Position numbers and translations under genes: made by a program
Assembly (NCBI GenBank): GCA_040285855.1
Contig: JAUFOQ010000013.1
Coordinates: 1,798,001-1,862,000, forward strand
Length of the DNA: 64,000 bases
From: Eukaryota sp. GEM-RC1
Lineage: Eukaryota
Reading direction: 5' to 3'
Part shown: piece by piece, positions 20,215 to 61,254 of the stretch
Layout of the letters: each line of letters starts with the position of its first letter
How positions within the stretch are numbered: position 1 is the stretch's first letter
Notes under the pieces: model-generated
What the model was told of the DNA's origin: nothing
Database searches by the model: none
What the model saw: the letters and a program-made list of their open reading frames with translations, nothing else

Positions 20215-20329
20215 AAAGATTAATAGAAACTATCCAATAAAGACAAAACAAACATCCCGTTTGCTCGTCTCTTTGAACTTCTAGTACGAAGTTCTACTTC
20301 AGTAGTAGATAAGTTTTGTCCTATTAATC

Positions 20330-20523: not shown

Positions 20524-21630
20524 TTATAACCTGACACCCTCAATTTCAACAACATTATTGATTTTTAAAGCCTGAGCAAGAGCTCTAGCACCAACATCAC
20601 CAATAGAGTTTCCATAGATATAGATACTTGTAACTGTATTGTTGATTTTCAACGCCTCTGCCAAAGCGCTAGCACCTTCATCTCTTATAGCGTTAATTCG
20701 AAGATCAATTCTTACAAGTGTACTATTAACTTTCAACATTTCTGCCAACGATACAGCACCTTCATCACCAATAGAGTTGTTACCTAGGTTTATACTAGTA
20801 ACTGCAGAATTAACTTTTAACGCCTCTGCCAAAACTTTAATGCCTTTAGCGCTGATAGAATTTCGACTCAGATTTATACTGGTCACTGTCGTATTGACTT
20901 TCATTACATTTGCCAATGCTCTAGCGCCTTCATCACCAATATAGTTCCAACTCAGATCAATACTGGTCACTGTAGAATTCTCTTTCAACAATTCAATCAA
21001 CAACATAGAAATAGATGAAGACGCCTGAACAAGAAGTTGTTTAAGACGTGGAAAATAGAGGGAAGTCTTGTTCAGAAACTCCAAATCTATAGTTTCGTCT
21101 AAATTCAGTTTCAATCCTGTAATTATAGAAGAATGGCCAAGAAAGTCTTCAACTTTAGATGTGAGGTTCGAATACAAGAAAATAGATCGAACATCTGCTT
21201 TAAAGAAAGAAGCAAATGAATAAAGTTGAGGTAGATCTTCAGAAACAACATGAAACGTGTTTGTATGAAACATCACCTTTACTGCTAGAGAAGAAGATTC
21301 AAAGAAACGGTGGCTTACATAGCCAACTTTCTTCAAGAATGTAGGTATTACTTGTATAACTCGGCGGAAAGGACAATGACGATCAAAATCCACTTCCAGC
21401 GGAGACCTCGAAAGCCGTCTCAGCAAGTGAAGAAGAATTATATTGATCAAAGACTGTGGGAAACGTATGTACATGAGTTGAGGACGGAGGCTCAACATCG
21501 GAGCAGACGGTGCAACAGGGTGTAGTCGTGTGGAAGAAATAACTTTAGGAGACAAGGAGCCACCACACATTGATGGAGTCCTGCTATGGAGTCCGTCAAA
21601 TGAATGACGCCTCTTTGAAGGACCAGACAT
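20524..21630 (-). CDS. RI/NLRC3-type LRR protein paralogue
   Basis: 28-aa LRRs; ~120-aa segment almost identical to the 2055-3173 protein. Confidence 0.85.
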   Translation of the reverse strand: MSGPSKRRHSFDGLHSRTPSMCGGSLSPKVISSTRLHPVAPSAPMLSLRPQLMYIRFPQSLINIILLHLLRRLSRSPLEVDFDRHCPFRRVIQVIPTFLKKVGYVSHRFFESSSLAVKVMFHTNTFHVVSEDLPQLYSFASFFKADVRSIFLYSNLTSKVEDFLGHSSIITGLKLNLDETIDLEFLNKTSLYFPRLKQLLVQASSSISMLLIELLKENSTVTSIDLSWNYIGDEGARALANVMKVNTTVTSINLSRNSISAKGIKVLAEALKVNSAVTSINLGNNSIGDEGAVSLAEMLKVNSTLVRIDLRINAIRDEGASALAEALKINNTVTSIYIYGNSIGDVGARALAQALKINNVVEIEGVRL

Positions 21631-22516: not shown

Positions 22517-24882
22517 CTAAACAAATCTCTCAACTATAGCCCTAAAGTTCTGAACCTTTATATCAGAATCACCCATCAAAAGTAATCGTTTTTGAATTAA
22601 TTTTGCTAGAAATGATTCAGATGCTATTAATAACTTGACAAAACGTTCATCAACAAGCAGACAATAAATTACTTCTGGACAAAAGACTTCAACTAACTCT
22701 CGTTGAAGATTCTGTATCAAAAGTAAATCAAATAGTGCAAAACTCTTAATTTTTGGAAATAAAAGACCAATTGTCAGAAATAGTTTTGGCTATAACTATA
22801 AAGAAGTCTGTCGAAGTCAACAAATGCATATAGGGTGATAGAACAGATGCAATTGCTGTTAGAAAACAACCATACGATTCTTGGTCGTTGTTTTTAGAAA
22901 TCAAGTTGGAACAAAAGTTCAAAACAAATTGAAGCGAATCTGGGCAAAATTTTAAAATTTTCAAAATAGAACTGCCACACGTCCGTCCAACAGACAGTGC
23001 CAGACTCAAACTAAATATTTTAATTTCTGATTCATTTCCATGACGTTTAGTATCAGGAGTTGAAGAATCAGTGGAGAAAAATAAGGATAAACTCGAAATT
23101 AAAGAAAATAAGATACTAGAAAATTCAGACAGATCGTGATTAGTGAACAATCGCTTCGTCACGCAATCAATCAAAAATGATAACATGCTAAAATCGGCTA
23201 TTGAACTGCTTACATGAGTTTCTAAGTGACAAACAGCTTTAAAAACAGTAGGAAGCAACAATTCAATACACTGCTTTGGAAATCTTTCAAAAATTAGAGA
23301 TATTATCAATTTTTGTAAGTCCAGAGATAAATTAATAAATGGTCCATATGTTGATTTTTCTTCTTTTAATTGAAGATTTAACATCATTTGAAGAAACAAC
23401 AAACATAAAACAAAGCCGGCGACTGAAATTGTAAGATAATTTTTGATATTGTAAATGATTGATAAGGGAAATTTTGGAGAAAAATTTAAAAAATTCCAAA
23501 AATAATGACTTGACTTCGTCTCTGTGAGAAGCTCCATTCATACAAACAAGACGAACAGAATTTAATAAAATAGAATCAACTAAAGTAAAATCAAGATTAG
23601 AAAAATCAGAATTGATTAACAAATACTTGAAGGCATGTATGACAAATACTATACCATTATGAGCACCATCTTTTTTGATTGTTGGAATCACGTCAGCAAC
23701 AGTTTCCAGGAATGAAGAATCAGAAGCAAAGAAGCCGACCAAAGAACAAGTAATAAATGGAAAAAGTTTCGATTCAGTAGAACTACCAAAATGAGTTAAA
23801 CTATAGGAATAGACTTCCACTAAAGATTCAGAAAAATTAGATTGTTTAGAAATATTGAAAGGTAGCTTGTTCTTGTCAATGAAGCTACATATGAGTTGCA
23901 ACAGATGAAAATTAAATAATTCACAAATATTTCGATCACATCGTACCGCCTTAATTGGAAACTGAATCAAAATCTGATTACCTAATCGGTCAAAAAGATC
24001 GTCACTTAAACCGTCAACTAATAGATTGAGAACACTCAAAACTGTGACCCCCATGGTGACGTCAGCAGCTCTATCACCATCCCATGGACACAACTCTAGG
24101 AGTGAATCAATCAAAATAGGAACAAGTTTGACTGTCAAGAAATTCAAATCAATCGATGCTGACGTGATTGTTCTACGAGTATCCCAAAAAGGCAAGTCTT
24201 CATCATAATAGGAAGGAAACCGACTGACCTCCACACAGTTAGAAGTATTCACCAACTCAATCAACGAGAACAAAACTTTGAAAAGTTCCTCCTTTTTCAA
24301 ATGTTTATGACTCTGTATATCTTCCTGACACCTTTTAGTCAGGACTGATATAGGTACTAGAATGGAGTAAGCAAAGGAATGAAGAGGAACCTTAGCTAAA
24401 CAGAGTTGAAGAAGAAGAGCGATGGCATTGGCAGAGACAGAGAGATCAGGATGATTAAGAGCAGCACGTAGATGAGCCACAACTAGTTCAAGGATTGATG
24501 ACGTGATGACGGGAAGAGAAGGGATGAACTTGGAGAGGAAAAGTGTAGAAGAAGATCGAACGCGCGTGTCTGGATCGGTGAGAAGGACAGAGACCTTGGG
24601 GATGGCAGAGGGAAGCTGGGAAGAGTTAGAAGGGTTGGAAAAGGCGTCTATTAGAGAGGAAACAGCGGAATGTCGAGCTGAAGCAGCATGATGTCTAAGA
24701 CCTGGATAAATGGCGGTTAGAGTAGGTACATCACATGCAGCAGCAGACGCTTGCTTTATGGACAAGGATTTTGACTGAACTTTAAGGATGGTTTCGTTGG
24801 AAGAGCTACGTTTTGCCCCCACCTTGGTTTTCCGCTTATCAAAATCAGTGTTTTTGTTCTTTGTGGGTTTGGAACGAACCAT
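22517..24882 (-). CDS. IPI1: Ipi1/TEX10 pre-rRNA processing protein (split by homopolymer indels)
   Basis: N-terminal DF.K.K.KVG.K..S.NET..KVQSKSLSI..Q, LRHH....R..AV..L, L.D.D.RVR, late YGPFINL.LDLQ; junctions at A-runs near 23355-23367 and 22750-22754. Confidence 0.8.
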
Positions 24883-32948: not shown

Positions 32949-34537
32949 ATGGGACGTCTAGAAAACTTCTATAGTGTTCATCTAACAACCTTTACTATAC
33001 TAGGTATCCTTGGAAGCTTCCTCATCTACTTTTCTGAAAAGGAATGGGACTTTGTTGACTCCTTTTTCATGTCCTTCTCATCAATCACTGATACCGGACT
33101 CACAACAACTTCTTTGGAGTCTGCCAAGTTTTCCACTCGTATTCTAGTTCTCTTCTTACTCCAACTAGGTAGTCCTGTTCTATGGACCTTGGTTCCAGTC
33201 GTTATCCGACGTCATTTCCTTATCAACAACTTCAACCATCCTGTTTGTACCGCTTCTAAGTATCCCGAGGAAGATCCCTCAGCCCCACCTATCCACCTCA
33301 ATCCAATTCCTCTCTACAAATACTCTAAAGAATATTGGGCTATGTCCCGCCTCATAGTAGTTGTTCTTGCCTACACTCTCTTCCTCTACCTGTTTGGCTT
33401 TCTCTGTCTGTCCCTTCGCTTTGCTCTCTCCCCCCATGCTAGGTACGTTGCTGATCAAGTGGGAGGGTGGAAGTTCTTTACGATCTTTCACGTAATTTCG
33501 GCCTCAACTAACTGTGGAATGTCACTCTTCTCTTCTTCACTTACCCCTTTTAGAGACGATCCTTTCATTTTGATCCCTTTAATGATTTTAATCGTCTTTG
33601 GTCAGACTGGATTCCCTGTTTTTCTTAGATTAATCATAATCAACAGGTCAAAAACGTCACGATATCGTCCTGTGTACACTTTCCTTCTTCATCATGGACG
33701 TTCAGTATATACTCATTTGTTTTCTACAGTGGAAACGTCATGGCTGGCGTTCTGGTGGTTGATTTTCTTTTTGTTCAATTTGGAGCTATTTTGATCTTTG
33801 ATTTTGACCACATGCCTGTTTCGAATCCTCTTTTGAACACGTTTTTCATGACAATCTCGACTAGAGTCACTGGATTCTCTACGATTGATCTATCACACGT
33901 CTCCCCACCACTTCTTATTATTTTAATTTTGTTACAAATTTTGGCGGTAACTCCTTTTATTTCTGTTCTTAGAAGTTCTGAAAAGACTGTAGAATCGTTA
34001 CCAGAACCAGGAGGCATCAAATCAGCCCTTCGGAAGTTGATCTCCACTCAACAGTTAAATACCTGGGCACGTGATTTCTTTTGGGTATATGCTTCTTGGT
34101 TAACTCTTACTATTATCATTTATAAGAGGTTAGATGGCTGGTTTTTGTTCAATCTTTTATACGAAGTTTCCTCTTCCTACGGTAACATTGGCTTAAGTAT
34201 GGGTTATCCAAGCACTGAGAGCTCATTTGCTTCTGAAACTGGAACATCAGGGAAGTTCGTGTTTTGCTTACTAATGTTGGCTGGTCGGCATCGTGGTTTA
34301 CCTTCGGTTCTTGATCAAAGTGCTTCTACTTTAACTTTTCAAGGGTTGGCTCAGAATGTTCTGAATTTGATACCTGTGGAAGTTTTAGCAAAGATGAATG
34401 TTAAGGAAGCTAAGAAAGTTGTAGCTAAACCTGATCCGGAATTAAATCCCTTATTAGAAGTTTTAATTGCAGATTGTGATGCCAACAATACCGTGACTTT
34501 GACTTCAAGTCACAGTTACTTAACCTTTCCCCCCTAA
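32949..34537 (+). CDS. Trk/HKT cation transporter (one frameshift)
   Basis: Pore-loop motifs S.ITDTGL, SASTNCGM, STRVTGF, SSYGNIGLS.GY and GRHRGLP; one extra T at 33768-33772 joins the two ORFs. Confidence 0.9.
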
Positions 34538-34968
34538 AAGATTGACCAACGTCAGGGAACTTAGGAGATTGATGGGTAAAGATCGGACATCAATGACTTC
34601 AGTGAAGGATTTGTTTGGAAGTTCAAAGGTTAATTAATTGAAGGATCAATTATGGAAATCGTTGTTTACAGTATGATTTCCAGTGATTACTTTATTTGAA
34701 AAACATGTGTGTTTTGAAACTTTTTGATTGAGTACTTTTTATGTCCTTAATTCTATTAAGCAATATTCTTTCGAAACAATTCTCTGTATTTACCAAACTT
34801 CATCATTTTCTATTGTCATTAAACAAAAGTTATTAAACAACGAATTCATTCACAAGAATGCTTTGTTTAGTACAAAGTACCTGGACTATATTTCAATTTA
34901 TTATTTTCTCTCAAAGTATTGTAGTTTTTTTAAACAAGTGTAGTTATTTTTTTATGTACAATGTCAAC

Positions 34969-35638
34969 AAAAAAACGGGGTTTATGATCAGTCAGTGAAA
35001 TAAATGCATTTGCAGAAGTTAATAACTAATAGACACTAACTAAAATATCTAAACTATGATCCTTCTGTCCATCACCAAACAACTTACCTCAAAGTGAATT
35101 AAAATATCTGTACATTGAACGAAACAACGCAAACGCTAACCTACTCAACCAAAAATTTTCATTGAAAACTTTACCATACTCAGAACACAATTTACCAAAG
35201 GAGGTTAAAAAACCTTGTGCAGCTGGTCCAATATTACCGTATATCGACATCGCAAAAGGTTGAAACACAAAAGAATTGTACCTGCCAACATTCAATTGGT
35301 TAATTAAGTGACAGTACTTTGAATTTTTCCTTTTTCAGCCACTTCAAGAGCAGAAAAATCATCCTCAAAAATTTTGGAAATTGATCTTGAATTACAAGGA
35401 CCAACAGTCGTGAAATCCATGATAATTTCCTGACAAGATAACCAAGGGCCAATCAAATCACCACGACTTCTATCAACTTTTGGCTGATCAGAAAGATAAG
35501 CAAGTAAAGGTTCAATTTTTTCATGAAAACCATTAGCTTTAAACATATCCAAACATGTATCCCGGATACTGTTGTGAATAATTGACTGAAAATGAATAAA
35601 TTGATGACAGTTAACTAAATGATGAAAATTTGAACTTG
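34969..35638 (-). mobile_element. 5'-truncated CRE-like element, family A copy 2
   Basis: Near-identical to 18450-19115; 9-bp TSD AATGTCAAC (34960-34968, 35639-35647). Confidence 0.9.
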
Positions 35639-35738
35639 AATGTCAACTTAGATAATCACACAACAGGAAACTAAATATTTAGAAAGACTATTAAAACAAA
35701 CTACATGTAGCGAACTACCGAATTCCGAGCAGTAACTA

Positions 35739-36321
35739 CACTAATCATGGTAATTAGTCTGTATTGGAAATTAGTCTCACATGGTAAATAGTCTCACTCA
35801 GACTAATTCTCATGTTGTAACACTTTAAACTGAAACTCGATTGGTAATTAGTCTCACTTTTTGTGATAAAATACCTATAAAATAGAACAACATTCGACGA
35901 ATACAAATACTGAACCACCTCGATATTACTTCTATTTTCCTATGAATAGCGTCTCCGCTGATGTTTGTGTTTACAAGTCAGGAAATTGAGTCAGGACGTC
36001 GTTTTTTCCAATAATGAGCTTGTTCGAGCACATCCTTTTGGTTGGTATACCCATCCTAATATGATTGTTGTGGAAGAAAATCAAGCAGACGTACCGAACG
36101 AAAGTTTTCCTGCTCTATTCATCAAAGTGAATGACAATTCATTTTTGTTTTGGTGGTGATACCAATTTCCAACAACGATAATTAGTCTGAGTGAGACTAT
36201 TTTTCTAACATGCTAATTAGTCTCACATGTTAATTAGTGTGTGTGAGACTAATTACCATGTGGATCCCTTGGACGATGACATATGAATTAGTCTGAGTGA
36301 GACTAATTACCATGATTAGTG
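35739..36321. mobile_element. Tc1/mariner-type MITE
   Basis: Perfect 22-bp TIR CACTAATCATGGTAATTAGTCT flanked by TA; subterminal TAGTCTCA repeats as in 5920-6426. Confidence 0.85.
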
Positions 36322-36879
36322 TACCACCAACCAGCTGGGTTAAAACAAAATCAATATACATACTACATGTAGTATCTCTATATTGATTTAAAAAGCGAAA
36401 AAGCAAATACATTGTTCGTTGATTGTCAAGGCACCTGTAACTTTAATTGTTAATTTCACTAGATGTTCCCTTTGAGAACTTCTTATCTTCAAGTTTTAGA
36501 TTTCTAGATTCTCGTGACCACACTGTTTTGAATGTATATTTAGATGGATCCAGCTACATCCGGGGGCAATTGTAAGATCGAACCCACAGCTTGCGTCATC
36601 GATCTGGAGAAAGTCGAGGCTTAACATTGAAGATAGAACTGATCAGAATCGGAGAAGATGGACTGTAAGATAATTATACAACATCGTTAATCGCGGGAGG
36701 TGCAATCCAATGTATTTTTGTATTTATCTCACTATTTTTGTTCCAAAAATAATAAAATTGATAGTATTAAAAGAAATGTAGGACCTATTTGACTGATCGA
36801 ACAATATGGTTGAAACTGTGAACTTGAATTCAGCTCAAGTATCTGTTACTTCTTGTATTAGTAACTGTTGGGTTCTTGG

Positions 36880-39584: not shown

Positions 39585-39764
39585 TGAGTCGACATTAATT
39601 GGAAAGAAATTCGACTGTGAATTTCATTCCGAATGCATAAGGGCATAACCCTTCACATTTTCATGATCTCATATAGAGCAAAACTCACAGTTTGACAAAT
39701 GTCTAAATTATTAGACAAATATCCTCATTCGCAAAGTCTTTTAAGACGAGCTAACTTCATAGAT
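39585..39764 (-). ncRNA. Candidate Fanzor omegaRNA (scaffold plus 3' guide)
   Basis: Immediately 3' of the Fanzor stop; hairpins at 39736-39747, 39700-39717 and 39639-39653, an 11-bp long-range stem 39680-39690/39615-39625, a possible pseudoknot 39726-39731/39630-39635, followed by a U5 run. Boundaries inferred. Confidence 0.55.
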
Positions 39765-42700
39765 TCAAGATTCCTGATCTTTCTGGTTTACGTGTGAGTC
39801 CTTGGGTACATCTTTCTTAGGCTTATTTGGACAAGTTGTTTTGTTATGTCCAGGTTGAAAACATATACCACACTTGTTAGGACCTCTGACAGTTGTTAGA
39901 GGACGCTTTGCTTTACCCTTACCCTTACTCACAGTCTTTTTCTTAGGAATCTGATCTGTATTCCCGCCATCCACGACAGGTGTTGTTTGAGATTTTGGTC
40001 TCTCGAGGATGGCAGGTCTACCTTGACCTTGAATGGTTCCATTTACAATATTATAAATATTGATAGCAGAATTGAAGTCTCTATTCCAGAGGACATGACA
40101 TTTAGCACATTCAACTAAGCCCCATGGTGAGACTTTTTTGCTCTTCAATCTTTCCTTCGATAATGGCAACTGTTTGGACCATTCATCATCAAAGTTACGC
40201 TCCACAATATTGTCTAATTGATTGTGTTCCATAATTTCCTTTTTTAATTCTTTCTCTTCCTTCTGTAACTTCTTCTTCCAATGAGGATCAGTGACTTTGA
40301 TCCCATCAGGATTGGAACAGATACCTTCGTCATTTCTGGAAACACATGCAGAGCAACATTTGCTGGTCTTAAATTCATCAACTAGGAACACTTTAAATCC
40401 AAATTTTCTTAATAATTTCCGAATTGAAGCACCTTTTACAGTAGATGCTTTACCTCTTCTTCGACGATAAGCAGTGTCGTTCCAGTCTCCATACCCAACA
40501 ACGACTTCATCTGAGTTTCCAAACTGGAGAGCAAATCTGTGAAGCATGTTTTTTCACTTCGTTCCTTTCTTGAATACTGTGTGAGACGATTCCGTCTAAA
40601 CCACTTTTCTTCGTAAATTCCTTCAGTATTTCTTTGATCAGTAGTGGGTGATCGTAATAAAGAACATGTAATTTCTTTGCCAAGAACAAAAGCAGAATAC
40701 TGAGTCAATTCACAAGATTTACTACCTGGCGAGTTAGAGCCCCATTGATCTAAAATTTGTTGCCCATTTATGTCAATGCGTCTGCCATCTGGACTGTGAA
40801 TAAATTGGGTAGAATATTGTTGTAACCGTTCGGATTCAGATAAACGGTGGAGATTATATCGTCTTATTTTCTTCTCCAGCTTCCTCTTCTTTCTCTTAGC
40901 TCTTTTTCTTTCCTTCCTTGTTTTTTCTTTTCCATGGAGACTTTTTAATATCGGCATTGCGCTCCCCAGCAGTGTATCTGAATACTTTCCAATCATCACG
41001 ATTTTTCAACTTGACAGTTGATGGTTTGTCAATAGTGGGTGCATCTTTCCAATCCTTCAATTCCTTTTTTAATTTTTTCAAGCTTCCTTTTTTCTTTGAT
41101 GATTTTGGAGAAATCTTTCTTCTTCTGAGATTGGCTGACGTATCGAAACCTTCGATTTCCTTTTCCTCCTTAGATTTTAAAGAAGCACAGTACATCAAAT
41201 CATGCTGATTAGGGTCAATAGCAACAATTCTTTTGGATTTCAACTTTAAGTTTTGAATTTCTGTGGAACTCAAAGAATCAATGTACCTTTCAGTAGCTGT
41301 GTAGTCAACTGCTTTCACCTTCTTATGAGGATTTCCTCTCCCATCAAGCAGATCTTTCCGCATCATCATTAAACTACAGCTAACTCCATCTGTGGAAATA
41401 GAACTGTATTTGAAGTCATGAGACAATGACTTTGGAAGACACTTTGGTTTCAAAACTGAGTGCCAAATGTCTTTTCGCACGTCATCATAGCTACCTTTAA
41501 TTTCTGATGCATAAACTTCTTTAAACCATGTAGTATCCAATCTGATATGATTAGGAATCAATGATTTTGTCAGAGGAAAAGGATTATTGGCAGTAACACC
41601 AGTACAAGAGTCTTCAACAAGACGTTTCAAATACACTGCATGACTTAAGAATTTCAAAGGATCTACTTTTTCAGCATAATAGATTGTTTTTTCCATTTTA
41701 CCTTCAAAAAAAGTAAACAAATAGTTAAAAAATAGTAAACTCAGTCTAGAATTGGGATCAGGAAACACTTCAACGTCTTAAATTAATTTTTGAAATTTTC
41801 CCATTAATGATCAACTGTCTGACTTCATTAAGCTTTGTACACAACTCTTGTCGTTGATTCTTATCAGTAAGCTTGTCAAGTCTATCTTTTTCAGGGTAAG
41901 CAAATTAAATACTTGAAAAACATGTTCGTGAAAGTGTTCACTCATGTTATTCTTGTAATTTGTAATAATTTCTGTTCCCATGTAATGCAATATACGAGAT
42001 AAACGATGACTACTGGGAAACACAATCCTATCAAGTCCAACAGATCGAGCAGCTAGTTCTAAACGAGGAATGTAATGAAACAATAAGTGTTGAGCAAACT
42101 GATTTTGAGTTGAGCCATCATTTGTGTTAGAAATTATGTTTGTTAACGACTCTTGTACAGTCTCAATATGATTCTGATTGTATACAAGTTTGTAGTCCCT
42201 AATCGTCATCATAGACAACACTTGTTCCATTGATTTCAACGTAAAAAAATTCTTCCAGTCTGGCAATTCAATTTTGGAAGTTTGAATTTTAGTCCAAAGG
42301 TCAGGTTCAGGTTCACCACTCGCATCTTCAATATTTTCTAATTTAACGGGAGGAGCAGTAGCATCGATAGACTCTGAATGTACATCTGTTTCTTCTTCAG
42401 TTGACTCATCTGTATCAGAATTCATTTCTTCCGTAACAGTTACATTTGGAACAGTAGCAGGCAGTAACTTCTGAATGTAACCTAAAATACCTGAATGGTG
42501 AAAATTATGAACAAAAAAATGTTTCAAAAAGAGAGTACTACGGACTCTTACTTGATGAGCTCTCTTAACACGAGATTCAATCATCCTAACCTTGGATTTC
42601 ATGATAACATTGTCCAGTCGTTTCTTAACCACTTTCATTGGTGACTTTGAACGTAATGTTTGCTTTTTGGGATCCAATAGGTCAGCCAACAAGTATTCAA

Positions 42701-45220
42701 TCAGAGGTAATTGTTGAATTGAGTTCATCAACAATAGCAGTCTTGTCGATTCCTTGGCCCAAAGTTCATTTACTTTCTCCAAATTTTTGACAAATTTCTT
42801 TTTAATCTTATCGACCTTCACTTTGGGATTGTCTGGAACTAAAACATTAATGCTGTCAATTATGCCATGCAAGTTTTGGACATTATTGACCAACTGAACT
42901 TCATCAAGATCAGAATCATGATTAAGTTCTTCCAAGCGTTTGACGGTTTCATTTTTAGAAAAAATATTTCATTTCAAGGAAAATTTGAACAACATTTTCC
43001 AAAAAACGGCCACCAGTAAAGACATAAAAATTCTTCAGTACAGCATTCAAATCGAGACTAAAAAACGGACCAAAAGTTGTTTCCTTACACCATTTGTTGA
43101 ACCAAAAGGGAATGTAGGGTTTAAATTCTGGAAAAGTAAACGTTGTATTGATTTTGAAGACTTGACAACGTGATGCAAGAAAGGGAAATGTATCTAAGTG
43201 AAAGTCATAACTCACAAACAATCGTGGACAATGTTGAGTAATGAAGGAAATGAAGTTTTTAAGCATACTGGATTCACTGTTTGAAATATGTAAGGTACAT
43301 AAATCCAAATTTGTAGTCTCAAAATTGCCATGGGAAAATAAGTGTTTTTCACTAAGGTCATTGTGATCAATGATCTGGATGGAAATTGATACAATCGGAT
43401 CAACAGAAGAATCACGTTTAACTTCTAATTGATCTTCAGCTTCACCTTCAACAGTTTCAATGTCATCATCATCTTCTTGAACAAGTTGAACATTTCTGCC
43501 ATTAATTCTTTCTTTTTTGGCAAAATCACTTTGAACATGAATTAAACAAAAAGTTGGTAGATTGTTCCAAAGTAGAGGGGATTTAAGAAAGTCTTGAATT
43601 TGTATTTCTTGTTCGATAGGCTCAGTGTGTAGATTTACTTCCATTTTATGAATTTCTTCTTGAATTGGCGATGGATACGACATAATGGAGGCCTGTGATT
43701 TGGGTGGTAGTTCAGATGGTGGTAATTCAGATGGCGATGGTAGTTCAGATGGTAGTACTTCAGATGATTCCAATGTGGACATACGGCGGTGAGTCTTTCG
43801 TATTGGAGTGTCACCAGTTGAAAAAAGGGAGCTGGTAGATCTAAATTTATTTCGTTTAATTAAGGGTGAACCTCGTGGTGATGGAACATCTGAAATTTTG
43901 GCTTTACTTTTTTTAGTGCTTAAACCAGTAGATGTTTTAGTGCTAGCAAGACGTGAACCTGTGAGAGGAATTGAAGTGGTTGGATGTTCTTTACCGGCAG
44001 GAGGTTGAATGGGTAACGATGGTACAATAGGAGCTACTGTGGTTTGACGTTGTTGTAGATAAAGTGTCCTTTGTTGAGACAAGACCTCCAGAATTTCTTC
44101 ACGAAATATGTCTGCTTGAAGTTCACTGTTCACTTGGATCAAATAAGTTTCCAAATACATCAGAGACGGAACATAGGCGAATCCTTTAAAAAGTTCAACA
44201 TATTTTTGAATATACGCAATGACATAAACTCCACAGTCGTTAGCAGACTGTCTTTTGGTCACAGGCACATAACGGAAAACATACCCCCATGGCACAAGTA
44301 CTTCGGATAATATGTCGACAGCTGGTTTTACCATAGACTTACTCATATCTTCGCTAGTTAACATTGGATCAATGAAGATCCATTCCTTCTCACAACAGTC
44401 TATAATGGCTAAACCCCAATGACAACCAGTGACACCTTCTCTGGAATAATTAGCATTTCTAGTCATCGTATCACTAAGGGGAACAAAGAGGTATTTGGAG
44501 TTTGTGATTTGATTTTTCTCAATTTTCGTCAACAACCATTGATCTAGCCGAAGAAGGGCATCTGGTGAAACAATATATTGAAGCAATGTGGTCGGATGGA
44601 TAAACATGCTTTCAAAGTCTAACTCTGCTTCTTGAAATATCACTTTACAGTACTCCACTATCGCTTCGTCATCAACCCATTGATTAGGATAAACTGAGTT
44701 TATGGCTTCTTGAGTTACGGGTCCTGGATTGGATTCAATATCACCATCAGCGGTGAGGTCTTTCGGGAACGGAGGATGGGAAGGGATAAACAGGGCAGAC
44801 GAGTACTTCATGGCAACAAATGTATGTGTTGATAAAACACAGAATGAACTGTCCTTATCTAAACTCAACTGAACCCAAAACCGTGCAATGGAGTCAGTCT
44901 CGAGTTGAGTAAGATAAGGACAGGATGGCGGCATCATCGAAGCAGCAGCAGTGGAGGGAGAAGCAACGGCAGTCATCACAGCAACGGCAGCGGAGGGAGA
45001 AGCAACAGCAGCGGAGGGAGAAGCAACAGCAGCGGAGGGAGAAGCAACGGCAGTCATCACAGCAACGGCAGTGGAGGGAGAAGCAACAGCAGTGGAGGGA
45101 AGAACTGTCCTTATCTAAACTCAACTGAGCCCGAAACCGTGCAATGGAGTCAGTCTCGAGTTGAGTAAGATAAGGACAGGATGGCGGACAACATCTGTTT
45201 GGATGTAGAACAAACGACAT
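39765..45220 (-). CDS. 2A - Ulp1/SENP8-like protease - PolB-exonuclease-like - Fanzor polyprotein (~1,800 aa; frameshifted in this assembly)
   Basis: Fanzor motifs T.YKNN..HF, FPL..S.IP.HIRLDT, STDGVSCS, RuvC-I AIDPN, YGDW, RuvC-II VDEFKTSKCCSAC, CAKC, RuvC-III WNRDFNSAINI. Protease W.DDE.I..Y, HWGL, FIDP, Q..NDCGVYV. 2A DIESNPGP. Pieces join by small indels at ~45100, 42959-42964, 41887-41891, ~41778, 40921-40926 and 40549-40554. Confidence 0.8.
44719..44760 (-). other. 2A-like StopGo peptide DLTADGDIESNPG/P
   Basis: Exact match to the D(V/I)ExNPG-P consensus, located directly before the protease domain. Confidence 0.85.
44845..45188 (-). repeat. Duplicated ~85-bp unit flanking 21-bp (AVASPSA) tandem repeats in the polyprotein leader
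   Basis: GAACTGTCCTTATCTAAACTCAACTGA...GATAAGGACAGGATGGCGG at ~44845-44931 and ~45102-45187; GGAGGGAGAAGCAAC repeats between. Confidence 0.9.
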
Positions 45221-45299
45221 TTATACTGTAGGAGGAAGGAAAATGAAATCCCACACAGACTGTAATGGACATGTGTGTGTCAATTCACGTGTTTAAAAG

Positions 45300-46258
45300 C
45301 ATAGCTGTCAAATACAAGTAACACCTGTTCTAAAAATACAAAAATACAAAAATACAAAAATACACATGCAAATACAAAAATACAAGTACTGTAATAAAAA
45401 ATGATTTAATAAGACACACTTTACTAAAAACACCAACACATGAAGTTGAATGTATGTCGATAAGCAAACACATGAAACATGGGATTATTAATAATGCTGA
45501 TACTACTTTCGAAAGTGATTCTTCCTCTTCTTGGAACACTACATTTCCATCTTGTACATTGTGCACTAGTCACAGCAACACTTAGTCTCACTTGAACTAT
45601 TTTACATTTCACGATGCTAGCCTCCAAACAGTTTAAAATGAAGTAAAACATAAATCAGTCCCGGTGAAAAGAATTTTCCACTGAAACTATTGATTGTGAC
45701 CAATGCAGTAACCAAGGATACCTGGTTTAACTTGTTATTCTGGTCGGAGAACAAGTAGACGAGGTGCATAGTTTAGGTGAATGATGTTCTATAATGACAT
45801 GTGGTAATGTATTGATAATCGCAACGATAATCACAACAACTGAATCACAAGTGTAAACTCCTCAAAAACGCCTATACTGCTATCTGATTGACTCCAAGTA
45901 CCAACAAAGACAGTTTGAGTTTGGCAAAATCAAAATTGAAAAAGATCAAAAGACAAAATCTCGATTAGTAGACGTAATTCTTATAAGTATACGAAACACT
46001 TGAAAAACAAAGTCTGGACAAAGTACCCACAACTGTTTCATTTACTATTACAAAGAAGTTTCGTATGTTTGGCTATCACCTTCAGAGTGACAAAGAACGA
46101 TAGTCAACCACTTTCTGTCAAAAAATACAAAAATACAAAAATACAAAAAAGCACATTGTTTAGACACGCTTGTATTTTACAAAAATACAAAAATACAGTG
46201 AAAATACAAAAATACAGTGAAAATACAAAAATACACTAATTTGTATTTTTCAGCTATG
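45300..46258 (-). mobile_element. Non-autonomous hAT element
   Basis: 8-bp TSD TTTAAAAG (45292-45299, 46259-46266); TIR CATAGCTG..AAATACAA; subterminal AAAATACA arrays; relic LSKVVSALLIIP...STSCVGVFSKVCLIKS resembling the hAT C-terminal dimerisation domain. Confidence 0.88.
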
Positions 46259-46559
46259 TTTAAAAGGAAATCTGTAATAAAGTCTATACCAGAATTTCCC
46301 ATGTCCTACTCAATCTTCAAACTCAGAAATACTTCTGAACAAGAAAGTCGTTCCCGTACCATCAAAACATATATGAAACTTGTTGTAAAGCTTGCTGATA
46401 AGCATGCAGTTAACTTGTCACTTGTTCTTCTTCCTTATGGAACATACAATTCTAAATCCATCCACATAACGGAAGTGTCAACATCTGACTTACCAGATGA
46501 TCTTAAAAAGGGTACCATGGATTTTTGTCTCAACCACAAATGAAGAAAACTACTCTAAC

Positions 46560-47110
46560 ATGTCTTCTTCTCCAATGAAGAGTAGCCGATCATGCAATGA
46601 TACTGTTTCAGTTGGTCACGTTATTGGTTATAAGAAGATCCCCTCTTCTACAACATCCTCTTCAAATTCTAGCTCTGATGTATCATATGCGTCATGCTCT
46701 CCTGCCCTTTCTTCCATCAACTCACTTGCGATTTCAACAATCCTTGTTGACTTTAATCCATCTTCGTTCTCTGAGTCGTTTGTTAGTACCATCTCTTGAA
46801 TGGAATCATATTAGGCATCCTAGTGTTCTCCTCACTTTAAAGAATGATATACCTGCGTTCTTTAAGAAACTTGGCTGGGTGAGTCACTATTTCTTTGAAT
46901 CTGCTCTTCTTGCAGTCAAGGTCTTTCTTCAAACAAACACGTTTCATATCATTCCTAAAGATCTTCCTCAACTATGTTCATTGACTTCTTTCTTTGGAGC
47001 AGAGGTTAAGTCTGTTTTCTTTCATATATCTGGATCGTTAACTGTTGATGAACTTTTCAATATTCCACCATAATTTCAGGATTGGAATTGCAATTGAATA
47101 CCAAATTCAC
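46560..47110 (+). pseudogene. Truncated LRR-family paralogue (N-terminal domain only)
   Basis: LRFQQSLL...IPAFFKKLGWVSHYFFESALLAVKVF.QTNTFH; frameshifted, no LRRs follow. Confidence 0.75.
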
Positions 47111-47668
47111 TTGGTCTTCAGACAGATTTTGAAAACAATTTGAACAATACTCATAGTATTTCCATGCAGACAGAAACAAAGGTTCTTACAATTGTCTACA
47201 ATATTGTACCACTGCACTGGAAGCAAAATGATACAACATAAAACAGTCTTTCAAATATGAAATTGAAACTGCAATTGTTAAAAGATTTAAATTTAATAAT
47301 GGCCAAAATTTTGAGTTTTCATTTGAATGATAGGGACAAGTACTTTAATGTGTTGTCGTTGACCAATACTTTTGTTGTGTCGATACTAGATTTAAATGAT
47401 GAATTGGTTTGTGATGAACAATGTTTAGGAATATTGGAGGAATTTCGTGAAGTGATGTGTGAATATTGTTGTGGGATTGGATATAAGGAGTCGTTTTCGT
47501 TGGCTGTGATGTTTGCGAGGGTGATGGGGGATATAGTAGTGCTAGTTAAGTTTGATAAACTGAAGTTGTATATTTTAATGGTTGTTTTTATCGACATTAT
47601 ATATAGAAGAAAACATTATGAGCAACAACAATTCAATACACATACGACACGTTGATTGAGATTGATTC

Positions 47669-47963
47669 TCACCAAATGTTGTAGTTACAAATGTTGTCAT
47701 TACAAATGTTGTATCACCAAATGTTGTAGTTACAAATGTTGTATCACCAAATGTTGTATCACCAAATGTTGTAGTTACAAATGTTGTCATTACAAATGTT
47801 GTCATTACAAATATTGTCATTACAAATGTTGTATCACCAAATGTTGTCATTACAAATATTGTCATTACAAATGTTGTATCACCAAATGTTGTCATTACAA
47901 ATATTGTCATTACAAATGTTGTATCACCAAATGTTGTCATTACAAATGTTGTATCACCAATGT
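47669..47963. repeat. 15-bp minisatellite (~19 units)
   Basis: Variants ACAAATGTTGTCATT, CCAAATGTTGTAGTT, ACAAATGTTGTATCA in tandem. Confidence 0.92.
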
Positions 47964-48621
47964 CGTTGACCTTAGTCTCATTCCAGATAGCATCTTGACG
48001 AAGTTGTTGAAATTCTTCGCCATCTAGAAGAAGGTCCCAGTTTGTTAAAGTAAAGGGCATGTATTGAGGTGCAATTATTTATGTGCAGGCAATTCAGAAT
48101 TTGATCTGACTCCTATAAATACAACTGCAATTGGTCAGTTTGGTACATTGTACTGTCAACAAACACATCTTAGCTTCCTGTAGATGATAATGAGTTACCT
48201 CAGTCTGATTTCATTATCGTGTTTTGAGTTGCTATACAAAAATGCAGTCAAAAACGACTGAAGACACAGCAGTGTATTACACGATCAGAGTTGTAGCAAA
48301 CCAGCAGAGTTGTAGCAAACCTTAGTGTTTTCCTTTGGAGGATAAGATGTCAATGTGATGTATGTGTAGTAGGATGGTTGTACAACGTTGAATTTATTCA
48401 TGACATGGTTGAACACGGTTCACAATTCTAAGAACGAATACCTGCAAACACGTCTCTATCTTGAAAGAAGCTCAACACTTGATATCAAAAGATGTATGGA
48501 ATCCATAAAGAAATTCGAGTTTATTCAGATGATAACAACTCTAAAAAGGAGAAAAAAGACACAAAGAAACAAAGTGTCCATCCTCAATATCTATACAATG
48601 GGAAGAAGAATGTGTGAATAA

Positions 48622-49105: not shown

Positions 49106-50640
49106 CAGTGTTTGAAAACCACCCGGTGCCACTCACCACCCGGGTGGCGTCTGGGTGGTACTGGGTGGATAATTTTGGTCTTACCATCATCTTCAATCCA
49201 TGACTTCCTGAATACATACTTCGTTGTTCAACGTGTCCTGAATACAATTATTTTAACGGGAGTTATTTTTAGGATCGGAGAGGCTAATATCATCTTACTT
49301 ATTTATTTTTCAGAGGGTTTTTCTAATCCCAAACCTAAACAAAGTACTTCATTGTTAGTTATTTTATATCACACACTGCTGCTCGGTTTCCCTTGGATGG
49401 AATCAATCTGTTGAATTCCAGTAATTGCCGTTGGATTCAATCTGCTAAAGATTTGGTATCATCATTGTCTCCTGAAATGTGGGAATCTTTGTTCCCTGCT
49501 CATTTGAAGGAGATTCCTTTAAAAAATATTTCATCTATACCGTCTGCTGTATGTAAGCTGCAAAATAAATTGACAAAGAGTTTGAACTCTTGGACTTTAA
49601 TAATCGTATTAGCTTGGCTAAAACTAATAGTCCCGAGTTCGCTGCTTTTTTAATTGATCTTTGTAATAGTGGACCTTCTGGATTTATTTCTCAAATTTCA
49701 AAGGTGTATGGTTTACATCTATCTGATGAAGCTTGGATGATCAATATGCGTCTTCGTTTGGCTATTTGGCCTGCAAATTTATTAAACTATTCAACTTGCT
49801 CTTGTGGAGCTAATGGTGTTTTTCGTCATTTAATTAATTGTCGTTATTTTATTCATCTACGTGCAATAATTCATGATGGTGTACGTGATTCTTGTTATTC
49901 CATGTTTAAAGCACATGGTTTTCACTCTAAAGTTGAACCAGTTTTGAATCATCTTTCAGATAATGAATTTACTGATGAAAAAGAGGGGATCTACATACTC
50001 CGTGGCTTAAATCGAGTCAATCATTAATGGATTTTACTACAGTGGATGTATGTAACAAATCTTGTGTTAGTAGGATTTTAGATTCTTCTTTTAACCCGTT
50101 AACAGCTGCTGAAAAGCTCAAACACTCCAAGTATGACTCTCAAGTTGAAGAATTAAATAGAAACTCATATTCCAAATTTGTGTTTCAACCTTTTGCTGTT
50201 TCTCTTTTTGGATCTATTAGTCCTGCTGGTGATCAATTTTTCAAGGATTTCGAAGAATTGTGTAAAGAAAAGAAGCGTAAGTTTAGAATGGCTGAATGGA
50301 AAAACCGTATTGTGTTTTCCATATATCGGAATATGCCTTTCTATTTCTCTAGATTAATTGAGAAATTGTAGAAGTTTGGTGTGAAGGTTAATGTTGATAA
50401 ACGTAATCTTTTACCGGGTGGTGATGAAGTCGTTTGGATTTAATCTTAGTATTATTTGTTTGTTTTTACAATTTCATAGTTTGTAGGAAGGTTACTTTAT
50501 TGGGTGCCGAATAAATTTCACTGCTAAAGTACTTTCAGTTTCATTGTATATGGTGTATAAAGTAGTTTTTGCACCAAAACTAATGTCTCGTACTTTATTG
50601 CCACCCGGGTGGCGTCCGAGTGGAAAATTTTCGAACACTG
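49106..50640. mobile_element. Non-autonomous hAT element carrying a nested CRE fragment
   Basis: 8-bp TSD TTGAAAAG (49098-49105, 50641-50648); TIR CAGTGTT(T/C)GAAAA; subterminal CCACCCGGGTGG palindromes at both ends. Confidence 0.9.
49381..50518 (+). mobile_element. 5'-truncated CRE-like element, family B
   Basis: W.INMRLRL..WP, CSCG...HLINC, IHDGVRD, MDFTTVDVCN, FVFQPFAVSLFGSI; possible TSD CACTGCT (49374-49380, 50519-50525). Confidence 0.85.
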
Positions 50641-51935: not shown

Positions 51936-54900
51936 CTAATTTTCAGAAAAAGTGAAAGAGCACAGAGGACAACGTCTACTATCACTCGCTTCGAACCATT
52001 TCTCAAGACATTTGGTATGCATTTTGTTCTTACAATTAAGACAGGATCTATTGGGCAGACTTCCATTTTCGTAGAAACAAACAGAATAACAAATAGAACA
52101 CATATCAGCGGAATCAAGATTCTCGACACACTTGGAAAGTACGATAATTGCAGAAATGACAGCAAATCTAGAATTATTTAAATATCCCAATTCTTCAGAA
52201 TTCAATCCAGAAACTTCTTCTTTCAAATCAGAAATGGATCCATGAATCTTCACAGCAGAATTAAGTAATAGCGACCATTTTCTAATTTCAGCTCTAGTAG
52301 AGTTCAAATCACAAGCAAACGTGACCTTACACGGACGTAAAGGGAAATCGTCAGGATAAGAGAAGAGGAATCGTCCAGAGTTCACAGATTCACCCTTCCT
52401 TTCAACTATTAGCTCAATTGAATGACCTGGGAGAGTGGAAAGTTTAAAGACAACATTGGGAGCTTTAATCAAGTGAATTACTGGAACAAGACCTATAAAC
52501 TGAGATTCTTGCTGGAAAAAATGTGTCGAGAACGAAGCTGAAAACACACGTGAAAGATATTTAAAATATTTAGGCAATTTGTTGACATACGATCGGAATT
52601 CCTGTAGATGTGAATGAATAACTTCTTCTAAAAGGAGAAGATATGCAAAGTTCGATGATTCCTGTAACAAAACAGGAGAATTAAACTCTAACAAAGGAGC
52701 AAACACTTCAAGTAGAGAAAAAATAATTTCTAAATTTTTTGAATCCAATACTTTAAGATTTTGGGATTGTTCAATTTTTGAATCAATTTTGTCGACAATA
52801 AGAGAAGAGCTTTGGAGTCAGAATCTATTTCAAAAGAATAATCAAAATCAAAAACTTTTTGGGAGGCTGCAAACTTAGCAAAGGAAATTTCAAATTCAGA
52901 AAACAGAAACTTTGAAGAAAATAATCTCCCTGAAATTAAAACAAATGATGACGGGAAAAATCTAGCAAGACTGGAAATATTCTTGACTGACGAACAATCT
53001 GCATCAATTTTCAATTTTTGGAGATAATTGGAAAAAACAATGTCAAAATCACTTGCAATTTGTTTGGTACCAGCAATAGCACTGACGTGACCAATGACGT
53101 CAGCAATGAGACTAATCAAAACAGGAAATATGTAGGAATCAAAAGTGATTGCTTCACTGAAACAATTAGAAAATAACTTCAAAACAATGAAACATTTAAA
53201 ATATGTCAAATCACTAACATCAATCGTTTCCAAGAAGAGTCGCAGAGATTTAAAACTAACATTTTCGTTTGCAAAAATGACTTTAAGCTGATCAAATGTA
53301 GACCATAAATTTAAATTTTGTTGATTCCAGCTACTTAAGCCAATAATTGACGATCCTGCTTTAAAACCGTCATGGTCACTTTTTAAACTATTAAAATTTT
53401 CAATATTATACATTTTGGAAAAACAGAACTGTAAAATTTTGAATTGGTGAGGCAGTAAAACAGAATTGGAAGAATCAGTGTTTTGATTGAAACTTTGATT
53501 GGCAAATACAAATGAGTGCACTAAATAGAACATAAAAGAATCAATATTGGTACGATCTAATACACTGTTTAGTTGCAAATTGAAATCCTCACATGGTTTG
53601 GCTTGAATTAAGTGAAGAATATGGGTTCCGAAAACAGTCAAAAAGCAATCAAAGAGCTCTTCTAGATTGACAAAAGGGAAGGACTGTCATTTTGATTGAT
53701 GAATAAAGCTAAGCCAATGTGACGGCTGAGATTTGATGAATCCAATGCAAATAGGAATGGTTTTGATTCAAATGAAAACAATAGCAGCAGGTCTTTCAAA
53801 AAGAATAAAGCCTGGTCGGAGATATTTGATTGACAATCTGAGAAGGAGGATACGAATTGGTTAATGAAATAACTGGCATCATTAACAGCAATCAGTTTTG
53901 ATTGATTGTCTAACAATGAGTCAAATTGAGGACCATAATCAGTACTGAGAATTTTAAAAAGTAGGAAAATGAAAAAATCAATCGTCTGATTGTCAAACTG
54001 ATTAATTTCATTACAATTGAGAAGAGAATTTAATATTTTGAAATATTTCGAAGGCCAACAACAGGTGTGGTGAGATTTCATTAAAACAATATAATCTGTG
54101 CAGACCGGAGGTAAATCGACATAAACCAAAAATTCTTCACAAGCAAGTACGTCATCATCAGTCAGCAAGTGGTCAAGAACACGTTTACAGAAATCAGAAT
54201 CCAGGAAATCAAAATTTAAACCCCGAATTAAATGAATTCTAGCAACTTTTAAATTAGAAAACAATGAAGCTATGTCCGAAAAATCATAGAAAGATTGTAA
54301 AAATCCTAATACAAATTTAAAATTTAGAGAATCAACAGATTCATTTGCAAAAAGTCGTTTAATAATTATTAAAAATTCTACTGACTGTTCCGAAGGCAAG
54401 GAATTAAATTCAGCATATTTAGCACTGATTTCATAGAAATTTGGTAACAAGAATGAATCAAAACAGAGCTCAGAAAACAAAAAAAGAGTTACCATACTTA
54501 CTTCATGAATATTTAAAAATGAATATTTCAAAAATGAACAAAATATAGCAGGGAATTGATTATAAAACTTTGAATTTTGGTGTGAGTCGTTCAAAAATTG
54601 TAAAAGAGCGCTACACAATTGAAATCCAAAACATCTTGAGCTAAAACATCAAACTCCAAATGACTTTCAAAAAACATGGAAAAATAATTTAACATTAAAT
54701 TATCAAAATCATCAGGAGAGGATTTCACTCCAATAACAATTAGAGAATCCTTAAAAGAATTGTACAAATCAATCACATTGGACCGTGATTTAACAGCGGT
54801 TATTTGTTGAAATTTTTTCAAAATATATTCAGACCACAGAAGAACTCCATGGAGAACTTGTTCCTTATAATTTGAATTATTCCAGAATTTTTTAAAAAGA

Positions 54901-55876
54901 GAGGAATTAGTTCACATGCTGTATCATCAAAAGCATCATTTTTAATAAATTCCAGGATTTTTGTAAAAACTTCGGAAGTTAATCCTCCCGGTAAGACCAA
55001 TAAGCAAGCTAATACTTCAGTAAACAAAGAATCCCTTGCTAGAAGATTTAAAAGTTTAGAAATTAACTTTTTGATGAACTTATCAACTGTTAAGTCCTGC
55101 CTCAACAGAAAATTCCAAAATTCCTGTGACATTATCAATTTAAATACAGAAAGTCGTAAATATTGGGGCATTGCGTGACCAATCAGTTTAAGTAATCCTG
55201 ATTGACTACCGGGATCAATCAGTTTTTCAATCAAATCCAATAACTGCCAACTATTTGAGTTTAGACATTCTTCTTCAGAAACACGTATAACCCAATTAAA
55301 CAGACCAACACCCATGTTTAAGGAAATAGCTACTATTTCAAAGGATTGTTCTTGAGACCATCCGTCGTTGAGAAGAGCAACGGAGGACTTTGAAAGGCAA
55401 GTGTTTAGGAAAGATTGAAAGTGTGAAAAGAAAGAGCTAAGTAGACGATCAGGGTGCTTGAAAAGGGAGGAGAAAGAAGATGACGAAATTCTGGCGACTT
55501 CACTTGACGGGTCAAAACTCAGGCCAACCCAAGGAGCAATGAAAAGAGGAAGAGCTGGTTTCAAATGTTGTTTGGGAAAGCGAGAGACTTGTTGGAGTAA
55601 CCGAGCAGTGTTGAGTCTAACACGGCTATTTGGGTCATGAACAAGGTGAGGAAGAACATTCTGAAGAGCCAAACAGAACGTCGACAGTAGTGAGGGTTCT
55701 AGAGAAGGTATCTCTTGACAAAGAGTCGTCAGAGCCTTTGCCCTAGTGATTTCACATCTTTTCTTAAGTTTTTGAAGAGGAACAGATATAGTTAGCGGGA
55801 GGTCGTCCGTAACAAGAGCAGAGTTTTGGAAGAACTGTGTTCCAGTAAGTAATGCAGCAGCATCTGATAGTTTCAT
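51936..55876 (-). CDS. LTN1: Listerin/Ltn1 RQC E3 ubiquitin ligase (four frameshifts)
   Basis: N-terminal L.KLKKR..ITR.KAL..L, L..DPNSRVR, PW....FDP..EVA; C-terminal RWD-like YP.DFPL and RING CSICYSV....GSLP...C..CKNK.H..CL.KWF..S....CPLC. Confidence 0.9.
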
Positions 55877-56456
55877 TGACAAAGATGGTGATAAAAGTAA
55901 AAGAATTTCTCATTCGGCAAAAACAGAAGCAGCTTCAAAAACTATACAAGCATACCCTCTACTATGCTTGTATTGGAACCTGCTTGTATTAGCGTCCATT
56001 ATATTTGTAAGATACTAATGGCAAGAACATCATCATTGTATTTCCATAATCCCAACCAATGTAAGAGTTTATTTGCAACAATTAATTAATACATACTAAT
56101 CCCAACCAGTAATCATTAAATTGCCCTGTCGATCATGAAAACCATTAAAAGCGAACCAAAATATGTGACAATCACTTGATCAAACAAGTTGTTCATTAAT
56201 CTCCTAACTGAACCAGTTCTAGGTAGGGAGTTCTCACAGTAGTTCTACCCTACTGTGAGAACAAACATAATACTGTGAGAACTAACGATTACGTTAGTTT
56301 AACAGTGTTGTAGCATGACGGCCTTAACTGCCATGAAAGATCAGAGATCAATCAGAACATGACCATAATTTAACTTCAAAAGAAGAGAACTGATAATTAA
56401 TATAATTTATTCAAAGATTAAAAAGAATCAGAATAAAACAAAACTAAATACTGTAT

Positions 56457-61135: not shown

Positions 61136-61254
61136 AATTAAGGCATTCGATTAAACACGCGTGTTTTTAAACATTATGTTTTTACCACGCTTTTTTTGTG
61201 GAATGTGATCTTGAAAATCTCTTTCCAACCTTTTGTGATTTCGTCCTTATATTA

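Follow-up and report, generated by a model that had tools for sequence, protein, structure and literature searches.

The window (the whole 64,000-nucleotide stretch analysed) carries on its minus strand a polyprotein frame of about 1,680 codons with about six breaks (39765..44811), composed from the N- to the C-terminus of a 2A-like motif, an Ulp1 protease, a PolB exonuclease-like domain, a Fanzor1 nuclease and a CCHC knuckle. The interval considered here (39585..39764) directly follows its stop codon on the same strand, and the host V-ATPase H gene lies 240-400 bp downstream. An initial annotation had proposed that this interval encodes a structured omegaRNA with a pseudoknot. Coordinates of the element and of its putative RNA are given for the minus strand.

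The Fanzor1 polyprotein and its family

The 2A-like StopGo motif DIESNPGP (44719..44742) is conserved in paralogs and relatives; such motifs were already known in retrotransposons (PMC3708506). The Ulp1/C48 peptidase domain (44197..44541) shows the HWGL and QSANDCG motifs and scores above the Pfam cut-off (PF02902). The PolB 3'-5' exonuclease-like domain (43141..43434; PF03104, E 3e-7) is, among solved structures, weakly nearest to Pol delta (E 7e-4), and atlas matches to this region (scores 0.84-0.85) serve as a lead only. The Fanzor1 hallmarks span 40077..41393, with the TDG motif at 41393, the RuvC-I aspartate at 41216, the RuvC-II glutamate at 40376 and the RuvC-III aspartate at 40079, and the C-terminal CCHC zinc knuckle (39825..39875) falls below the Pfam cut-off. 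The RuvC-II glutamate stands six residues ahead of a zinc finger (DEFKTSKCC); this spacing and the TDG motif have been described for Fanzor1 (PMC10711439). RuvC-I reads DPN instead of DPG in the window and in the relatives P0001 and P0002, with the catalytic D and the P retained. By sequence, the solved structures nearest to the close relative P0003 are SpuFz1, PpFz1 and GtFz1. A Foldseek search with a structure model of the paralog P0170 (pLDDT 68.5) returned the same three proteins (E 5e-14, 2e-10 and 2e-5, respectively) and Fanzor2 at E 0.07. On its motifs and on these sequence and fold matches, the upstream gene is assigned to Fanzor1, in agreement with the Fanzor of the initial annotation.

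The frame breaks were placed by frameshift-aware alignment to two relatives. Most of them are probably long-read homopolymer (assembly) errors, because every break region of the Fanzor1 frame contains an A or T run of 5-6, because paralogous proteins have a continuous frame across 42954, 40926 and 40554 and are broken at other A runs, and because host genes are split in the same way. Indeed, host genes for TrkH, a UvrD-like helicase, a condensin-like and a listerin-like protein are divided across frames near A/T runs (32949-34537, 59065-61135, 22746-24882 and 51936-55882), which suggests assembly indel errors, and consecutive ORFs continue the TrkH, UvrD and UvrD_C profiles from one frame to another with A/T runs at the junctions. 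The break at 41890 (site G AAA AAG) is common to the window and to all four paralogs that reach this position, and a sister family, 49% identical, reads through it; it may be a systematic error, an inherited lesion or a programmed -1 frameshift.

The C-terminal piece falls in a 26-member protein cluster, at least 15 members of which lie on 7 large contigs; among the 15 members listed, 14 share one NCBI taxon label and the remaining one is the window's own. Paralogs are 88-96% identical to the window, and 12 of the 15 listed copies end at the same stop. Where they are spanned, the catalytic residues are kept (D 4/4, E 12/12, D 13/13), and the TDG motif is found in the window and in two of three paralogs, the third having TDE. 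This sequence evidence indicates that the family is young and probably maintained. The argument relies on many near-identical copies with an intact D-E-D triad and not on the density of pairing in the interval, which the initial annotation had taken as a sign of maintenance and which does not show it.

A second taxon contributes 10 related proteins, five of which (1,394-1,494 aa) carry the 2A, exonuclease and Fanzor1 parts in a single frame. Both taxa are presumably free-living metamonad flagellates. The three acidic motifs of the exonuclease are intact in six of the seven sister proteins checked, the seventh being unmatched at the third motif, so that the PolB-type 3'-5' exonuclease of this sister family appears catalytically intact; in the window's family these motifs are degenerate and the Ulp1 motifs are kept. 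No close DNA relatives of the family were found in the viral contigs, metagenomes and prokaryote genomes searched. At least four more distant Fanzor1 families occur under the same taxon label (P0011, P0033/P0183, P0051, P0055, P0103 and P0190), and one of them likewise ends in a CCHC knuckle.

A Fanzor1-exonuclease/protease fusion was not found in print among the papers listed by searches of mostly open-access literature, in part judged by title or abstract; PMC10530073, PMC3627910 and PMC13565253 do not use the word "exonuclease" in their main texts. Searches of the same scope found no literature on Fanzor in metamonads. It is this carrier frame, more than the RNA, that lifts the interest of the locus: the single frames of the relatives, with intact acidic motifs, are a natural nuclease-exonuclease fusion. 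The exonuclease could trim guides or resect cut ends, and the fusion bears both on genome editing and on the spread of Fanzor elements without a transposase. The young multi-copy family also makes the guide boundary, the TAM and homing accessible by flank alignment.

Ends and surroundings of the element

An exact 12-bp direct repeat has its right copy at 39603..39614, beginning on the base directly after the 11-bp stem described below, and its left copy at 48507..48518, about 100 bp past the stop codon of a host gene for an adaptor-complex small chain. The repeat is a candidate target-site duplication, in which case the right end of the element would be 39615. No exact repeat shared by the 403-nt intergenic region and the 18.8 kb upstream is longer (empirical p 0.009-0.023 and 0.01), and near-matches of the motif are about as frequent in the window as expected (22 vs 21). 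The duplication may nevertheless be a chance match, because the 8.9-kb span to the left repeat also holds a fragment of a host LRR gene, a truncated transposase start of 34 codons and an insert resembling a MITE, and because the transposase start had one homolog and not twenty. We put the odds that the repeat is a target-site duplication at about even.

The right copy doubles as the 3' arm of a local hairpin (39630-39601), which fits its inclusion in the scaffold; a sequence-specific target would then be required. In Fanzor1 systems, duplications of up to 12 nt can form part of the scaffold, the guide being the 15 nt beyond (PMC10711439). By this rule, drawn from the available text of PMC10711439 and PMC13565253, the predicted guide of ~15 nt would be 39588..39602 if the duplication belongs to the scaffold and 39613-39599 if it does not.

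No significant inverted match, symmetric or asymmetric, was found that could serve as a terminal inverted repeat (TIR) of the element, whose left end is uncertain; an imperfect TIR at 45258-45238 was not significant (null 0.17) and was rejected. No transposase, HUH transposase included, is present within the element. Its 5' side holds two 86-nt copies of a long hairpin (44846-44931 and 45102-45187, together 44846..45187; z -5.8 and -5.9), which are separated by GC-rich short repeats and which occur in paralogs in two or three copies plus a variant sequence. Rfam gave nothing meaningful for these hairpins, and a hammerhead reading, an idea that comes from Penelope-like elements, was dropped for want of a meaningful match.

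Several other repeats were recorded in the window. The MITE-like insert (45293-46265, ~970 bp) is bounded by inverted ends of ~21 nt, has TTTAAA at either end and contains (TACAAAAA)n arrays. At 47575-48060, a 15/45-nt tandem array is joined to the opening 34 codons of a gene resembling an HTH transposase (91% to P0210). A family with repeated copies that resembles non-LTR retrotransposons is represented by fragments at 18506-20251 (with a YADD motif), 49590-50371 and 34954-35634. An LRR multigene family is represented by three genes and one fragment (2055-3173, 15961-17904, 20524-21630 and 46654-47031). A strong inverted-repeat region (35737-36323) contains the best-folding non-ORF tile (z -6.7 at 36121), and a tandem repeat of ~810-840 bp is present in at least three copies at 61231-64000.

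Folding of the interval

Each motif string of the initial annotation can be read on the minus strand, just past the stop codon at 39765, and its two central hairpins are borne out. The 7-bp hairpin TGTCTAA-TAAT-TTAGACA (39717-39700; pair probability 1.0) gains a 4-bp extension (39694..39723; 0.99-1.0) and is the candidate first stem-loop. The inner ATGTG-AAGGG...CCCTT-A-TGCAT hairpin (39633..39658) pairs through GGG/CCC with probability 1.0. Both keep this value for every local choice of ends that contains them. A small side hairpin (39668..39678; probability 0.4-0.8), absent from the initial annotation, lies on the 5' side of a three-way junction, at the same place as the side hairpin of the relatives described below.

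The stem that would close this junction (39614..39691) is more conditional. Its pairing potential is as claimed, with 11 bp including two G-U pairs (arms 39690-39680 and 39625-39615), extended to 13 bp (39691-39679 / 39626-39614), and it is a candidate terminal stem. Its formation depends on the end of the RNA: the probability of the 11-bp stem is 1.0 if the RNA ends at or before position 39606 and 0.14 in the interval as delimited, because its 3' arm also takes part in the local hairpin (39601..39630; 11 of 12 pairs), which excludes it. The two folds have nearly equal energies (-43.2 vs -43.9 kcal/mol), and a helix of at least 13 pairs arises in 22 of 400 shuffles. A terminal stem is present in all three competing folds. 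The GTCTT-AA-AAGAC string is also found (39747-39736), but the hairpin as originally drawn has a 2-nt loop, which is sterically impossible; a shortened hairpin forms with probability 0.25-0.87 according to the choice of ends.

Two further elements of the initial annotation did not survive. The CGAATG/CATTCG pseudoknot (39731-39726 x 39635-39630, within 39630..39731) is rejected: its 3' strand has three bases in common with the ATGTG/TGCAT helix, and a shuffled copy contains on average 4.7 perfect 6-mer complements at long range, which are present in 97% of 300 copies. Such a pseudoknot is not expected either, since the gene is assigned to Fanzor1; it is required in TnpB and Fanzor2 omegaRNAs (PMC10711439), and the available text of PMC10432273, PMC10711439 and PMC13565253 describes Fanzor1 omegaRNAs without one. 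The terminal U5 lies just outside the interval (39584-39580) and is uninformative, as the window contains 433 A/T runs of at least 5; no terminator-like site was found.

In the comparison with shuffled controls that the initial annotation had suggested, the 180-nt interval has a folding energy of -45.3 kcal/mol (z -2.62, with 2 of 200 shuffles as good); the fold as a whole exceeds chance. The trimmed interval 39752-39614 reaches z -3.92 (0/200). In the window, 11 of 388 non-ORF tile-strands, or about 3%, have z <= -3 (12 shuffles each). The fold of the interval is thus above chance but moderate, and not exceptional for this genome. In a sliding scan, structure peaks at the expected place of a guide scaffold and disappears beyond about 39520. 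The plus strand also folds more stably than its shuffles (z -1.8 to -3.4), but the minus strand folds better, with G-U pairs. An Rfam search of the interval returned nothing meaningful, a GC change-point at the interval was not significant (p 0.29), and no degraded copy of the 3' region was found elsewhere in the window. A near-match of the first-stem signature discussed below, just past the stop (39763), forms only four of seven pairs and was dropped.

A probable guide RNA and competing interpretations

An alignment search gave 160 related loci from giant viruses and metagenomes (L001-L160; ~30% identity, mostly on giant-virus contigs), the nearest relatives obtained at the DNA level. One right-end sequence after the gene, followed by variable flank, was observed in 144 of the 155 loci with a located NRD motif. 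A first-stem signature (UC ahead of a 7-bp stem whose loop ends in G), which SpuFz1 shares (PMC10432273), is found in 43 of 60 representatives. In a covariation set of 31 sequences chosen for a 6-nt loop, a selection that favours the first stem, double changes occur at all 7 pairs of this stem and 96% of cells pair. The rest of the relatives' scaffold is free of a pseudoknot and comprises a terminal stem that carries a side hairpin on its 5' side and has an uninterrupted 3' strand.

The candidate resembles this scaffold in layout. The relatives' RNAs have a 7-bp first stem, a linker of ~10 nt and a length of 99-140 nt from lead to end, and the candidate has a 7-bp hairpin, an 8-9-nt linker, an inner stem and 106 nt; both have a three-way junction with a closing stem, a 5' side hairpin and a continuous 3' strand. 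Its fold z (-3.9) is close to the relatives' median (-3.4, for 40 of the 60 representatives). At the sequence level, the relatives' covariance model gave 0.8 bits (E 6.7) on the candidate, which is absent from the match list of the whole window; on 26 other loci, the same model reached E <= 0.01 in 17, was weak in one and missed 8 Fanzor loci. A second model restricted to the first stem had no match at the candidate, and the UC...G lead and loop signature is missing at the 7-bp hairpin (39717-39700). A match to the relatives by sequence was likewise not found. The candidate is therefore like a Fanzor1 scaffold in layout, and sequence homology to the relatives is unsupported. The elements also differ: those of the relatives have TIRs (seen in 11 of 60 within the fetched flank) and stand-alone proteins of ~650 aa, features not found in the window element.

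The 3' ends of this large giant-virus Fanzor1 TIR family (L003-L160, e.g. L017:1793-1910) carry a sharply bounded and strongly covarying scaffold of ~115 nt, detected by model R1, for which a description was not found among the papers listed. In L001 (2113-2167), an insertion of ~35 nt in the loop of the first stem-loop indicates that the stem tolerates large inserts.

Among characterised systems, the window element shares with SpuFz1, PpFz1 and GtFz1 the TDG motif, the glutamate before the zinc finger and a candidate RNA after the ORF with a 7-bp hairpin, a linker and a terminal stem. It differs from them by DPN in place of DPG, by the lack of a detected TIR, by a first hairpin without the U-C lead and loop G, and by the ~1,680-codon frame with its 2A, Ulp1, exonuclease-like and CCHC parts. 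An RNA adjoining the right end of the element and a seven-pair first stem, past which the structure is free to vary, have been reported for Fanzor1 (PMC11423790, PMC10432273, PMC10530073). According to the available text of PMC11423790, the 7-bp first stem is the only feature common to the three solved Fanzor1 RNAs, reported Fanzor1 RNAs measure 75-150 nt and the 5' end of GtFz1 differs, so that the U-C lead and loop G may not be general among Fanzor1 RNAs. With TnpB and Fanzor2 the element shares the logic of a guide RNA at the 3' end; their pseudoknot is missing here, as expected for Fanzor1.

We consider it likely that the interval constitutes all or part of a guide RNA. The preferred reading is that it is the omegaRNA scaffold of the upstream Fanzor1 in a short form, with a probability of about 0.5; position, strand, size and layout fit a Fanzor omegaRNA, as initially proposed. 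The hairpins lie on the coding strand, 45-160 nt after the Fanzor1 stop codon, and this reading is supported by the fold, the layout, the Fanzor1 protein, the family of copies and the adjoining 12-bp repeat. It is weakened by the failure of the covariance model, by the missing UC...G signature, by the competition of the closing stem with two other pairings, by the ~3% of tiles that fold alike, by the lack of a TIR and by the broken ORF of the window. The RNA is a probable addition to the known class of Fanzor1 guides.

Under the short-scaffold reading, a pseudoknot-free RNA of ~105-120 nt would run from about 39720 to the right end (39615-39603) and be followed by a guide of ~15 nt copied from flanking host DNA. 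By analogy with characterised Fanzor1 systems, it would be released by read-through transcription and trimming and would contact the protein at two places, with its first hairpin at RuvC/TNB and its closing stem at WED; the complex would cut element-free alleles beside an AT-rich TAM. Repair from the filled allele would then restore the element, that is, homing (reviewed in PMC13565253). As the element contains no transposase, it would have to move with the help of a partner acting in trans or by break repair alone.

A longer omegaRNA of about 400 nt, of which the interval would be the 3' half, is less likely, and we treat it as a lead. It would start in the coding tail (40016-39990), a helix between 39944-39927 and 39622-39604 would close it, and the hairpins together with the zinc-knuckle codons would form an insertion in distal stem 2. 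At the place where the scaffolds of relatives begin, the coding tail contains a GC-rich 10-bp stem (39963..40016); TCA lies there at 39990 and TGTCG at 39978-39974. The relatives' first stem starts 92-111 nt past the NRD codon in 33 of 42 cases, and here TCA stands at +95, then TGTCG. This sequence has no 7-bp stem of its own, however, and equal scores are reached at 51 sites in 128 kb. The 10-bp stem beats synonymous shuffles (0/150 in two windows), the coding-tail zone reaches z -4.4 in the sliding scan and the fold of 40030-39599 has z -4.86 (0/100 as good). A coding-tail stretch (39914..39944) can pair at long range with 39645-39604. The resulting long stem has probability 0.95-0.99 for starts at 40060 and 40030 and ends at or beyond 39600, but drops to 0.05-0.71 if the RNA starts at 39993. 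With the 3' segment fixed, no synonymous block (0/300) and no random block (0/297) equals the duplex; in a free search, 4 of 28 random blocks were as good and the duplex (-29.9) barely exceeded those of 20 other gene ends (-29.3, -29.2). The 75-150 nt of published Fanzor1 RNAs (PMC11423790) also argue against this length.

The hairpins could instead be DNA signals at the right end, similar to those of Helitron2 or Replitrons, or a 3' UTR element, with the guide elsewhere or lost; we regard this as unlikely. Helitron2-associated Fanzor1 elements (CRe-1, -2, -3) and Replitrons likewise have no symmetric TIR, hairpins on both sides and variable 7-19-bp duplications or short direct repeats (PMC3627910, PMC10288648), features which the hairpin 39630-39601 and the 12-bp repeat recall (PMC3627910, PMC10288648). 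The missing TIR, the long hairpins on the 5' side and the below-shuffle folds of the plus strand point in the same direction. Unlike these elements, however, the window element has no Rep/helicase and no HUH transposase, TTTT does not precede its left repeat, and an asymmetric TIR was not found. The better folding of the minus strand, which uses G-U pairs, favours an RNA, and a family with an intact D-E-D triad needs a guide, which adjoins the right end in every characterised Fanzor compared. DNA-signal and guide-RNA roles can coexist.

That the folds arose by chance in AT-rich intergenic DNA, partly within the promoter of the V-ATPase H gene, is quite unlikely: the background frequencies of comparable tiles and of 13-pair helices, the lack of an Rfam match and the absent GC change-point agree with it, but structure peaks at the expected scaffold place, is gone beyond about 39520, and the family prior is high.

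A bolder scenario is an active Fanzor1 lineage, natively fused to a PolB-type exonuclease and Ulp1 behind 2A, whose fold-switching omegaRNA of ~400 nt would include the zinc-knuckle codons of its own gene; without a transposase, the element would spread by cutting target sites and resecting them, with 12-bp duplications left behind. Taken as a whole, we consider it very unlikely.
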